Source of the DNA: a virus
Taxonomy: Duplodnaviria > Heunggongvirae > Uroviricota > Caudoviricetes
IMG/VR virus record: IMGVR_UViG_2531839666_000028
Reading direction: 5' to 3' (one strand)
DNA length: 32,520 bases
Shown piece by piece: positions 15,001-21,000 of the stretch. The position numbers were made by a program. The first letter of the stretch is position 1. Every line of letters begins with the position of its first letter.

Positions 15001-18000
15001 TTGCTCAAAAAATTCGTGAAGGATGGCAGCCATACGGCGGGCCGTTTTCTTCGTATACGGATGATGGCGCAGCACTTATTCAGGCGATTGTCGCAGAAGG
15101 TGATGTGAGCACACCTGTGTTGGTGAAGCCGTCGGATGGAGAAGGCACAGTTATCAGCACCACCAGCGAACCGGAGTATTACTTTGTTGTGGTTCTGGCG
15201 GGGCAGTCAAACAGCATGGCATATGGTGAAGGCCTTCCGCTGCCGGAGACATATGACCGTCGGACCCGCGTATTAAGCAGCTGGCGCGCCGCAGTACGGT
15301 GACACCGGGCGGTGCCGCCTGTAAGTATAACGACATTATTCCGGCGGACCATTGTCTGCATGATGTGCAGGACATGAGCCGTCTTAACCATCCGAAAGCG
15401 GACCTGTCAAAGGGGCAGTACGGAACCGTGGGGCAGGGGCTGCATATCGCCAAAAAACTGCTGCCGTTTATACCGGCGAATGCGGGCATTCTGCTGGTTC
15501 CGTGCTGCCGTGGTGCTTCGGCATTCACAACGGGTGCAGACGGCACATACAGCGAATCAGCCGGTGCATCGGAAAATTCACTGCGCTGGGGTGTGGGTAA
15601 GCCGCTGTATCAGGATTTGGTGAGCCGGACTAAAGCCGCACTGGCGAAGAACCCGAAAAACCGTCTGCTTGCGGTGGTGTGGATGCAGGGAGAAGGTGAT
15701 GCGGCAGTGGGGACGCATGCGCAGCATCCGGGGCTGTTTAGTGCGATGGTGAATCAGTTCAGAACGGAGCTTGCCGGTCTGGCATCACAGAGCACAGGAG
15801 GCAGCGCATCAGCGGTACCGTGGATTTGCGGGGACACAACGTATTTCTGGAAGCAGCGTCATGCGGAAGGGTATGCATCAGTATACGGAGGGTATAAGGG
15901 TAAGGAGTCGCAGAACATTTTCTTTGTACCGTTAATGACGGATGAGAATGGTGCGAATGTGCAGACCAATAACCCGGCAGAAGACCCGGACCTGGAAACA
16001 GTCGGTTATTACGGTTCAAAGTGGCGTAATGACCAGAAGACCTGGACATCAGCAGACAGGGCCAGCCATTTCAGTTCATGGGCTCGCCGTGGGATTATTT
16101 CCGACCGTCTGGCAACGGCGATTCTGGTGCATGCCGGGAGAACCGCTGAATTCATTACCGGAAAACAGCCTGATACGGTGAAGCCCACCGGACCTTCCGG
16201 TGAAGGCCCGGAGAGAGAGCCGGAAGCCCCGGTCAGTAACCGAACCCTGATGAGTCTGCTGGCGTCCGGTGAAGACCTGGCATCACAGGGCTGGCGCTAT
16301 TATCACAAACCGGCGAGCGGAGACAGTGTTAATAAAAACATCGCTGAGGCTGTGGTCAGTGATGAGGGGGCTACGGGAGGTAAGGCCCTGCAACTGAACA
16401 AACCGGAAAGCCACATCTGGTTTCTGGAGCATGATGCCGCCGGGCAGGGGGCAGAGTTGCCGAAGAAAGGCGGACGTGTGAGCGTACGGTTTAAGGTGCC
16501 GGGCGCACTGGTGCCGAATCAGTTTGCCCTGGGTATTTACTGGCAGTTGTCGTCCCTGCCGGAGGGAGTGACGCTGTCAGAGGAAGGCAACGACATGCTG
16601 ATGTCCTTCTTCCTGCAGACGGATGCGACGAACCTGAACGCGATGTACCACAAGAAGCAGAATGCGAAGCTGGATACGTTCGGGGTCTTTGATAACGGAT
16701 GGCACACACTGGCTTTTGAGTTTGCCGGAAACAACAGCATTCAGGTGACGCCGGTACTGGATGAGAAACGGGGTACACCGTTCACACTGGTGAAATCTCC
16801 GGCATCAGGGGCGGCGGACAAACTGCAACTGACAGACATATCAAAGGCGGCGACATATACGTTGCTGATTGACAGTGTGAAGGTGGAAGTGAACAACGCG
16901 GATGCCGCGGCATGATAAAAAAGGCCGCCAGCAATGAAGGAAAGGGATGAACTTTGTCCACTACATGAATGCTGGCGGCTGGTAAAACGACCATGATGAC
17001 ACCGAAGTCTGCGGTGTTTTTCTACAAAAATAAGTAAATCATGTCAACTATCACGGTGAGAAACCATGACATTTCTGAACCAGTTAATGCTGTACTTCTG
17101 TACGGCGGTCTGTGTGCTGTATCTTCTTTCGGGTGGGTACAGGGCAGTGCGCGATTTCTGGCGCAGGCAGATTGATAAAAGGGCCGCAGAGAAAATCAGC
17201 GCCAGTCAGTCAGCCGGAAGCAAACCCGAAGAGCCGCTCATTTAGCTGCAACTTTCTTAATCACACCTTTCGACGAGAAAATCCCATGTCAGAAATTACA
17301 TCCCTGGTCACTGCAGAGGCAGTGAAGGAAGTCCTGCGCTCTGAAGAAGTCCTGAGCGCACTGAAACAGAAACTCCGCCAGAACCTTGAGGCGCGTCTTG
17401 ATGCAGAAGTGGATGCCATTCTGGATGAACTGCTGGGCGCACCGGCAGTTCCGGAGCCGGAAGGTATCGCGGGTGAGGGGAGTGCTTCAGATGGCGGTGA
17501 CCCCACACCTGACAGCGACATGATGATGTAAGCATGCGCAAGGGACCATCGGTGTGTGCCGGTGGTCTTTATATTGTTGTGAGCTTCCGGATTGCGGGAG
17601 ACGGGGTATGTACCAGATGGAAAAAATCACAACAGGTGTGTCATACACCACGTCAGCGGTGGGGACGGGCTACTGGTTCCTGCAGCTGCTGGACAGGGTT
17701 TCCCCGTCTCAGTGGGCGGCAATAGGCGTGCTGGGGAGTCTGCTGTTTGGTCTGCTGACGTACCTGACGAACCTGTATTTCAAAATCAGAGAGGACCGTC
17801 GTAAGGCGGCGCGGGGAGAGTAAAGCGATGAAGAAAAAATACGAACTGGGTGTTAAAGGGATAAATAATTACCCGGATAAGATTGCTGTTACTGTGGCAC
17901 TTGAAATTGGCGGGCATCCGTCGTTGTTGTTGCCACATGTGGCGATTAGTCTTGACCGTACTGAAGGTGCCACGCTGGAGTTTTACGAAGCTGAGGCGAA

Positions 18001-21000
18001 AAAGCAGGCGAAGCAGTTTTTCATGGATGTTGCTGCCGGGTTATGTGAAGGGGATGGTCCGTTGCCGGAAAAGCGCCCCGTAATTTTAGAGGCGCAGGAT
18101 GTGTTGATAACCTACAGAGGAAAACTACCGGGAATAATTACGGGTTCTCTGAAGAGTCCGCCGAAATGGTAATTTTACCAGCATATTTTTCATCCAGTAA
18201 TACAGCAAGCCGCCTGAAAGAGTCTTGTTGTTCCTGAGACCATTTGGGATTGCATGATTCAAACTGGATTGATGCCAGCGTTGATTGCATCTGTTCCCTT
18301 GGAATTGAGAATGCCAGATATGAGAAGGCGACGGTAAGGGTGTTCACGTCTTCCCGAAGCCTGGAAATGCTGTCGAGCAACTCCTGTAGAGAAATAGTGT
18401 TATTGTCCATAAATAATCCTCATGATTGTATTGACCTGTTAGCAGCCTGAGGCAACAGGCTGGAACTGATAAACATATCCAGGGCTCAGAAACCGATAAA
18501 TCCTGATAAATATCCATGAACACCAAAATCAGATACGGCCTGTCGGCTGCCGTTCTGGCGCTGATTGCCGCAGGGGCTTCTGCACCTGAAATCCTTGACC
18601 AGTTTCTGGATGAAAAGGAAGGCAACCACACAACAGCATACCGTGATGGCGCGGGTATCTGGACCATCTGTCGCGGTGCCATTCTGGTGGATAGTAAACC
18701 TGTCGTCCCGGGCATGAAGTTGTCGAAGGAGAAATGCGACCAGGTTAACGCCATTGAACGTGATAAGGCGCTGGCATGGGTGGAGAAAAACATCAAAGTG
18801 CCACTGACGGAACCCCAGAAAGCGGGGATCGCGTCATTCTGTCCTTACAACATTGGCCCCGGTAAGTGTTTTCCGTCGACGTTTTATAAACGAATTAATG
18901 CAGGTGATCGCAGGGGAGCGTGTGAGGCGATTCGCTGGTGGATTAAGGACGGTGGCAGAGACTGCCGTATTCGCTCAAACAACTGTTACGGTCAGGTATC
19001 CCGTCGCGACCAGGAGAGTGCGCTGGCGTGTTGGGGGATCGACAGGTAAGCAGAATATTTTGCTGAAAAATGAGATATGCTCACGTGGACGGATAACACG
19101 AAATCCTGCGAACTGGCAAAATGTAAGTGAATAAAAGTAAAAACCCCGTTTGTTGGCAGCAAGCGGGGTTTTGTTTTTATGGCAGTAAGCTATGGGAGGC
19201 TGCCTTGATTGATTTTAGCAAACTGATTAGGGAGTTGCGACTCATGATTAGTCAATTACCAAACTGGAAATTTTTGCTGGTCTGGAGCATCCCTTTTTTA
19301 TGGGTAGTATCCCAGTTAATTGTGGCAATTAAGGGGTAGCTATGTCAGACAAACTCATAACGCCGGCAAAGGTCCTGTGCGTGATTGTAGGTATTTCATT
19401 TTCACTAATGCTGGTTGCTCTTTTTCTGTCCCTCGCCTGGGTGATGTTGTCTTCGTCGGGGCTGCTGGGGTGACAGTGACTGATGACATCAGCAGAGCGC
19501 TGGCTTTTGCTATTAAGTGGGTGGCTGTTGGTATTGCTGTGTCTCCGATGCTGTATGGGCTGGCAAAACTGGTCATTGCGTTGAAATCGTAAACGGGGAT
19601 TAAGAGGTAATCATGTCACGCAAACTCATAATGCTGGGGGAAATCCTCTGGGTCATTGTCTGCATTTCATTTTCAGCAACGCTGATTGCTCTTCTTCTTT
19701 CTATGGCATGGATGACGTTGAATTCGGCAGGGCTGGTGGGGTGACAACGATATGAACCGGGCACTGTGTGGCGTGATTATTGTCCTGCTGGTGGCCTGTG
19801 GTGCGCTGTGGCTGGCAACAGACCATTACCGCGATAATGCCATCACCTACAAAGCGCAGCGCGATAAAAAAGCCAGAGAGCTGGAGCTGGCAAACGCAAC
19901 CATTACTGATATGCAGGTGCGCCAGCGCGATGTTGCTGCGCTCGATGCAAAATACTCGAGGGAATTAGCCGATGCGAGAGCTGAAAATGAAACTCTGCGT
20001 GCTGATGTTGCCGCTGGTCGTAAGTGCCTGCGGGTTAAAGCCACCTGTCCAGGCTCCGTGCGTGAAGCCCCCACCACCTCCGGCGTGGATAATGCAACCG
20101 GCCCCCGACTGGCAGACACCGCTGAACGGGATTATTTCACCCTCAGAGAGCGGCTGATGACGATGCAGAAGCAACTGGAAGGGGCGCAGGAATATATCCG
20201 TACTCAGTGCATTAAGTAGTCTTTTTATTATCCGGAGGATATATGAAGAAATTACTGGTAACCGTAAAGCCTTTTCAGGGAACAATTCCGTTCCGTGTTT
20301 TGCAGCCTGGTCGTGTTCTTGTTGAAGGTACGTTCAGTGGTAAATGTACGCAATCATACTCCCGGGTCTTTCGGGTGGATGCCTCGAATGAAGAGCTAAC
20401 CGTGGAGTGTGCTGTGAATGCCGCTAAATGCCGCATGGTATCGGCTGCATTACAGCCAGTGTGTTGAGCGACCTTATTATCCATGGCGCGGTATTGTCGC
20501 CGTATTCCCGTATTAACAGAGACCGCAGCCCGACAGGGAGACTCCTCTGCGCGAGTGTGCGGGGATAATCAAAAACGATACACACCGGGGTTTACCGCGT
20601 TAACGGAGCGCGGCGTTGTCCCCTCATGGTCGCTGGTCCGGTGCGATGGTGGAAGAAACCGGACTACATTAAAAATGATAACCATTATCATTTTTTGCGG
20701 GTCCTCCTGGTGGGGTGGGTATGAACACGGGGCGGGCGGCGCGGAAAAAGGCGCATTTTTTGATTTTTATGGCACCATCACCACCAGTGTAAATCATTGA
20801 TATATACCATAATAAAAATTTTTAGTGTCGAAGTTGATTGTTTTTTGTTCATCACTGGCGTGTATTTACATAATTTTCAGGGGAAGTTATGGATCGTGAA
20901 TTAAAAAATCTGCATCTGAATATTTCCCAACTGGCTGCATTATCCGGTGCTCATCGACAGACTGTCGCGGCTCGGGTAAAAAACATAAGCCCAGCCGGTG

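Follow-up and report, generated by a model that had tools for sequence, protein, structure and literature searches.

Why a small gene should lie on the minus strand within a rightward phage late operon is the question raised by a stretch of Caudoviricetes DNA of 32,520 nucleotides (nt) (IMG/VR record IMGVR_UViG_2531839666_000028; hereafter the window, which denotes the whole of that stretch). Between the holin and lysozyme genes of the window, a 114-amino-acid (aa) late gene of the ydfR family (DUF1327) on the plus strand (17828–18172, ATG start; PF07041, phrog_406) converges with a 90-aa gene of the Ybl58 family on the minus strand (18138–18410, ATG start; phrog_2411, RefSeq WP_000369850.1). 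The two genes overlap at their 3' ends by 35 nt (18138–18172), where the plus-strand frame ends in GSLKSPPKW* and the minus-strand frame in ISADSSENP*. The open reading frame (ORF) list and the sequence agree with the four-gene layout of holin, plus-strand ORF, minus-strand ORF and lysozyme described in an initial annotation of the window, and they confirmed its coordinates, strands, gene sizes, the 35-bp overlap and the 5-nt distance from the end of the holin stop codon (17823) to the first base of ydfR. That annotation also called the arrangement unusual and offered lysogen-expressed cargo, antisense regulation of lysis or a toxin-antitoxin-like pair as explanations. The arrangement can no longer be called unusual, since the four-gene layout as a whole is already annotated in RefSeq, and DNA specific to the minus-strand gene and its leader (18165–18470) was found in 1221 of 5426 complete Escherichia coli genomes (22%). 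We consider, at a probability of about 0.6, the minus-strand gene to be a moron-like accessory gene that is transcribed independently and lies nested against a late-operon passenger; among the explanations offered initially, lysogen-expressed cargo appears to be the most plausible.

The minus-strand gene is well represented in databases. The 90-aa protein matched phrog_2411 ("Ybl58") over its full length (residues 1–90 of 90, E = 1.1e-58), and RefSeq holds it as WP_000369850.1, a "hypothetical protein" in exactly the same layout. Its UniRef name is Ybl58, and the identical protein was present on at least 1000 contigs. Between alleles, the Nei-Gojobori ratio of nonsynonymous to synonymous divergence (dN/dS) was 0.1–0.36 at dS values from 0.3 to more than 2, that is, to saturation. 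As judged from this substitution pattern, the 90-aa minus-strand ORF is a genuine gene under purifying selection; homology and profile searches, by which the initial annotation would have a chance ORF recognized, thus returned a conserved gene. Profile searches recovered homologs of 81–108 aa in more than 10 genera, the majority being 83–97 aa long and distributed across Escherichia, Citrobacter, Klebsiella, Atlantibacter, Serratia and Sodalis. Searched exhaustively with a profile, 1.84 billion proteins yielded only 20 cluster representatives, and the Ybl58 family is small, restricted to Enterobacterales and without a Pfam family. The E. coli genomes carrying the gene-specific DNA include ST131 strains, UTI89 and, in the Rac prophage, BL21-derived C43(DE3). 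An AlphaFold2 model of Ybl58 (predicted local distance difference test, pLDDT, 76) shows helices at residues 8–34, 38–52 and 59–76 and a disordered C-terminal tail at 79–90 (tail pLDDT 39) that is variable across homologs, and model and sequence together suggest an acidic, soluble three-helix protein. Pfam, NCBIfam and PADLOC scans assigned the protein to no family, the sole match, Mip, being below threshold (E = 0.037), and a PDB sequence-profile search gave no match. A literature search on Ybl58, the WP accessions, phrog_2411 and opposite-strand holin or moron genes found nothing relevant.

We then compared the locus with related phages. Alignment with BP-4795 showed that the minus-strand gene is carried by a block of ~305 bp (18165–18470) absent from BP-4795-type cassettes. 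Specifically, the block extends from two codons ahead of the ydfR stop codon to the box AACATATCCAGGG upstream of the lysozyme gene R. It contains the 5' leader of the minus-strand gene and the gene itself, apart from the final 8 codons and the stop codon. BP-4795 and Shiga toxin (Stx) phages are without the block, and their flanking DNA is 90–100% identical to that of the window, so that the block shows presence or absence between collinear conserved genes of close relatives, as expected of a moron. A second hallmark of morons, a base composition unlike that of the neighbours, was found to a modest degree, the GC content being 0.43–0.475 across 18100–18500 and 0.50–0.58 in the flanks. The initial annotation regarded both genes as inserted between holin and lysozyme; this holds for the minus-strand gene, which is insertion-like relative to BP-4795 and Stx phages, but not for ydfR, which is the usual occupant of the junction between the holin gene S and R. 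Of 5426 complete E. coli genomes, 3159 (58%) contain ydfR-like DNA, at 6732 places in all, and about 1432 of these places carry the block. The gene order in the K-12 Qin prophage is essQ-ydfR-rrrQ, which is the same slot between an S21-type holin and an R21-type lysozyme, and that of BP-4795 is S-ORF47-R; many Stx phages likewise have S-ydfR-R, with ydfR directly before R. BP-4795 and K-12 Qin are thus examples of ydfR without the 90-aa gene.

Sequence identities along the locus indicate that the window cassette is itself a recombinant. The N-terminal domain of the window ydfR is 96–100% identical to that of BP-4795, and the segment 18050–18500 is 98–100% identical to cassettes with the other deep allele of the ydfR N-terminal domain (dS ~1.5). 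YdfR-family proteins are collinear through ...SLK(S/T)PP (window ~18164, codon 112/113) and then diverge, so that ~18164 is a cassette-swap point; at least five kinds of ending were seen there, namely KW*, LA*, ESQP*, E* and a coiled-coil extension of ~60 aa in proteins of 162–183 aa. In addition, one IMG/VR contig (L034, 2500–4000) has a rearranged cassette in which R and Rz fragments separate ydfR (116 aa) from the 90-aa gene, whose convergent partner there is a chimeric ORF.

Copies of the gene outside late operons bear on whether it can stand by itself. A broader profile added a chromosomal Ybl58 lineage in Serratia, Chania, Gibbsiella, Chimaeribacter, Sodalis and Acerihabitans, whose members are all annotated as hypothetical and carry no Pfam domain. 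The Serratia gene (L098, 3638–4279; L173–L183) is located directly downstream of dinI and its terminator, upstream of bssS and a few kb from rne. Since these copies lie behind the dinI terminator, they would need a promoter of their own. Intact stand-alone copies were found beside iha on an E. coli island, beside a plasmid autotransporter gene, in Sodalis and in Serratia, and the iha-linked, autotransporter-linked and Serratia marcescens proteins were each present on at least 1000 contigs. Note that the genes at L087 (2946–3218) and L086 (2971–3240) are intact, diverged 90-aa genes amid insertion sequence remnants, beside the adhesin/siderophore receptor gene iha and the autotransporter gene on pK99B_1; upstream of the iha-linked copy, part of the R start region is still present.

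The sequence upstream of the minus-strand gene offers candidate signals for expression. A Shine-Dalgarno sequence, GAGGA (18417–18421, minus strand), lies 6 nt upstream of the ATG codon and is kept as GAGGA in E. coli alleles. Further upstream on the same strand is a leader hairpin, CAGCCUG-UUGCCU-CAGGCUG (18443–18462), which was found at the equivalent position in nine lineages with differing stem sequences and with the pairing kept. In the leader alignment, 95% of the cells were paired, six of the seven pairs varied on both sides and none of 500 shuffles reached the score, although the covariation count leans towards structure because the alignment was hand-anchored on inverted repeats. The G-U pairs of the hairpin correspond to A-C mismatches on the late strand, which points to a role in Ybl58-strand RNA and hence to a transcription start for this strand upstream of the hairpin. 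A candidate promoter on the minus strand (18472–18500) consists of TTTATC (18500–18495), a 17-nt spacer and TATGTT (18477–18472), and lies inside a conserved box, CCCTGGATATGTT. Family members in E. coli, Citrobacter and Atlantibacter contexts are preceded by this box, with its -10-like TATGTT. The sole terminator candidate for the minus strand is a weak hairpin followed by UUUU (18132–18068). No LexA-box-like sequence was seen by eye, without a formal scan, upstream of the phage or Serratia copies. Distant Ybl58 genes (upstream regions at L092 3880–4000 and L089 3880–4000, and those of L095 and L096) are preceded by an additional leader hairpin, the stems of which covary and the conserved loop of which, GGAUGGCUGAUUAA, contains AUG GCU GAU UAA and lies just upstream of the Shine-Dalgarno sequence.

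On the basis of these features, we propose that ydfR would be a late-operon passenger translated directly after the holin, and that the Ybl58 gene is most likely a self-contained, moron-like unit whose transcription probably begins at a weak promoter of its own in the ydfR-R spacer and passes through the structured 5' leader. With its own promoter, Ybl58 could be produced in the absence of late-operon transcription, for instance in a lysogen; expression in that state and any biochemical role are inferred. Q-driven late transcription would oppose Ybl58 expression, and convergent transcription could thereby make the two mutually exclusive. The 3' overlap would result from continuation of the Ybl58 frame across the sequence complementary to that encoding the conserved C-terminal motif of its partner (ITGSLKxPP). 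As judged from alignments and the structural model, the overlap is constrained by the partner, and the overlapped Ybl58 residues belong to the variable, disordered tail.

Several observations weigh against this proposal. Besides the lean of the hairpin alignment, single-sequence folds of the leader were not exceptional (z-scores of -0.5 to -2.9). The initial annotation had given the minus-strand gene its own ribosome-binding site and a possible promoter; the former stands as the GAGGA sequence, but a consensus scan detected no good-quality sigma-70-like promoter or terminator for the gene, and the best candidate promoter matches 7 of 12 positions, which is below the scan threshold. Furthermore, the promoter box is also present upstream of R in BP-4795, which has no 90-aa gene, and the promoter assignment is therefore uncertain. 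A Foldseek search of the 90-aa model against PDB and BFVD gave nothing at E ≤ 0.001 and hence no functional lead, and no expression data for the gene were found in the searchable literature. Finally, a partner recurs in each phage context, which may mean that the two genes depend on each other.

To place this last point, the pairs in other prophages have to be considered. In all six of the prophage lineages sampled, the Ybl58 gene runs opposite to the late genes, and its 3' end overlaps that of a convergent partner by 7–35 nt. In the E. coli group, the pair is located between S and R and the partner is the 114-aa YdfR (overlap 35 nt). In Citrobacter, it precedes a lambda-S-type holin and a CHAP endolysin, with a partner of 238 aa (14 nt), and in Klebsiella it is located near the terminase genes, with a partner of 62 aa (20 nt, or 17 nt without the stop codon of the partner). 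The Atlantibacter pair lies between tail genes M and L and has a partner of 71 aa (7 nt). One uncultured lineage also has the pair between M and L, with a partner of ~50–60 aa whose start is uncertain (15 nt), and a second has a partner of 85 aa (17 nt). In E. coli the overlap has a length of 35 nt in essentially every copy, compared with 7–20 nt in other genera, and in one variant (L138) a 12-nt insertion in the overlap keeps both reading frames. That the overlap arose by mere chance at the E. coli insertion junction was considered and dropped, because divergent pairs in other genera overlap too. The locations also weaken the initial suggestion of antisense regulation of lysis: since such pairs sit in tail and terminase regions as well (between M and L, by terminase) and upstream of a different holin, a regulatory role specific to lysis is unlikely. 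Separately, an intrinsic terminator on the late strand (AGCCATCTCCGGATGGCTTTTTT) is present beyond the gene pair in the Atlantibacter copies, and a HicA/HicB toxin-antitoxin pair (L005, 4087–4770) directly adjoins the Citrobacter gene pair. Related-locus scans of viral contigs (P0065, P0074) found nothing.

The partner proteins have one shared feature, a C-terminal motif, [IY]xGx[LI]....I[TF]G[SD]L[KR]xP. Pfam and PHROG scans of the partners from the other genera gave no DUF1327 match, and hhalign links between these partners and YdfR were weak (pairwise E = 0.005 and 0.054, with low probabilities); partners ending in ITGSLKxPP may be remote YdfR relatives. The window YdfR itself matched PF07041 with 143.7 bits (cut-off 25), residues 1–111 being aligned to model positions 1–91 of 93. 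Its AlphaFold2 model has strands at residues 5–14, 18–27 and 38–43 and a helix at 50–73, and pLDDT falls below 50 from residue 74; residues 1–73 thus form a predicted beta-beta-beta-alpha domain, and residues 74–114 a low-confidence tail ending in ...GKLPGIITGSLKSPPKW. The N-terminal domain exists as two deep alleles with a dN/dS of ~0.3 and a dS between them of ~1.5, and the tail among E. coli alleles shows a dN/dS of 0.4 to more than 1 with few substitutions. We considered and rejected the idea that the tail is conserved through selection at the protein level, since synonymous divergence there is simply low and dN/dS is not. The similarity of the tail among alleles would rather reflect a recently shared block than strong protein constraint. 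The single experimental report on YdfR that we found concerns the K-12 protein, for which binding to the catalytic N-terminal half of RNase E (by two-hybrid assay and co-purification) and pull-down of RNA were reported, with limited effects of over-expression on the transcriptome (PMC13232886); binding to RNase E and RNA is reported for the K-12 protein only.

Given this recurrence, the strongest competitor to independent expression of an accessory gene is that the two genes form one functional module that moves as a unit, with Ybl58 binding or neutralizing the ITGSLKxPP tail of its partner, or with convergent transcription and 3' antisense pairing serving as a switch between lysogenic and lytic states. 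We regard this as possible but doubtful. The Ybl58 gene does converge on and overlap its partner in every one of the six divergent prophage lineages, at four late-operon sites. The partners keep the common motif where the remainder is unrecognizable and are weakly linked to YdfR by hhalign. The late-strand terminator of Atlantibacter stands just past the pair, and the 12-nt insertion in the overlap spares both frames. However, each gene is widespread without the other, partner homology is not significant by Pfam or PHROGs and has low hhalign probabilities, and the YdfR tail is under little protein-level constraint among E. coli alleles. Moreover, the linkage could reflect descent from one compact ancestral cassette.

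A more elaborate version seems somewhat less likely still, and we put it forward as speculation. The pair may constitute a mobile two-gene switch of lambdoid prophages, in which convergent transcription, the structured leader and possibly the handling of double-stranded RNA or RNase E by the YdfR-type partner would keep the two products from being made together, one belonging to lysogeny and the other to lytic growth. Gene capture, in either direction, could link the chromosomal Serratia-type homologs to this switch.

That the pair is a toxin-antitoxin or abortive-infection system, one protein being toxic and the other its antidote, was also suggested initially, and we consider this very improbable. 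Two small adjacent prophage genes with overlapping ends would fit such a system, and HicAB beside the Citrobacter copy suggests that accessory cargo gathers at such sites. On the other hand, the genes are convergent and not co-directional or co-transcribed, and neither protein matched a toxin, antitoxin or defence family in PADLOC, Pfam or NCBIfam. Both products are predicted to be soluble, and there is no membrane-peptide toxin. Each gene is also common alone, including the Serratia-wide chromosomal lineage, and co-occurrence is therefore not obligate; over-expressed K-12 YdfR had limited transcriptome effects (PMC13232886). Least credible of all is the reading of the 90-aa frame as a decayed relic or an antisense ORF that arose by chance, in a region where only an RNA element or spacer matters, for although no strong promoter or terminator was found, several database entries are frame-shifted versions and a conserved RNA hairpin lies upstream, the frame and length are kept at saturating synonymous divergence (dN/dS 0.1–0.36), profile searches found homologs in more than 10 genera, and intact copies occur in unrelated genomic contexts.

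The genes on either side of the pair are those named initially, a pinholin and a signal-arrest-release (SAR) endolysin, as supported by the PF04971 and PF00959 matches. The holin gene (17608–17823, plus strand) encodes a 71-aa class II holin of the S21 (pinholin) type with Met1 and Met4 at its N-terminus; it matched PF04971, "Bacteriophage P21 holin S" (E = 9e-33), and PHROG holin families, and its RefSeq relatives are labelled "class II holin family protein". The lysozyme gene (18516–19049, plus strand) encodes a 177-aa R21-like protein (PF00959, E = 2.3e-24; phrog_7, endolysin) with an Ala/Gly-rich, hydrophobic, SAR-like N-terminus. Directly 3' of the endolysin stop codon is a strong terminator-like hairpin of 15 pairs followed by GTTTTT (19140–19172, plus strand), which is placed within the late operon, upstream of small ORFs and Rz. 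Between the endolysin gene and Rz, a 148-nt direct repeat with 76% identity (19328–19475 and 19599–19746, 271 nt apart) duplicates a small hydrophobic ORF of 43 aa (MSDKLITPAKVLCVIVGISF... and MSRKLIMLGEILWVIVCISF...). No Rfam family was matched within 17500–18700. Elsewhere in the window, Rfam matches at gathering score were obtained at 14511–14718, 5881–6069 and 12930–13093, namely STnc100 small RNA (177 bits), adjacent isrK and C4 antisense RNA, and two tRNA genes, a set typical for Stx-like lambdoid prophages.

The pair occurs widely and has been annotated before, and it does not indicate a new mechanism of lysis. What appears to be undescribed in the searchable literature is the definition of the Ybl58 family, its Serratia-type lineage, the convergent architecture and the covarying leader hairpin. 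The family as defined here is present in about one fifth of complete E. coli genomes and has no Pfam model. If the two genes were functionally coupled, they would provide a compact case of control by convergent transcription in phage late operons, and a connection to the reported binding of YdfR to RNase E might exist (PMC13232886). Experiments should be easy, since BL21/C43(DE3) carries a copy.

The closest known systems include the morons of lambdoid phages, which are additional genes inserted between conserved late genes, each equipped with a promoter and a terminator (e.g., bor and lom of lambda, and gp15 of HK97). Like these, the 90-aa gene is present or absent among close cassettes, lies between late genes and has a lower GC content, and morons can oppose late transcription, as the 90-aa gene does. 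It differs from them in overlapping a convergent partner and in having a covarying 5' leader, and its promoter and terminator are candidates. The convergent, 3'-overlapping type I toxin-antitoxin loci such as txpA/RatA of Bacillus resemble the present pair in that two convergent units with overlapping 3' ends lie within a prophage. Here, however, both partners are protein-coding with products predicted to be soluble, no hydrophobic peptide is encoded, and the antisense partner is itself a protein kept by purifying selection. Compared with YdfR of K-12 Qin, the window protein shares the PF07041 membership, the holin-lysozyme slot on the late strand and an N-terminal sheet followed by a helix, whereas the K-12 protein is 103 aa long and is without the ...GKLPGIITGSLKSPPKW tail, and its gene directly adjoins rrrQ with no opposite-strand gene. 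With the hypothetical proteins of Ybl58/phrog_2411, finally, no difference was found, and the 90-aa protein of the window belongs to this same uncharacterised family.

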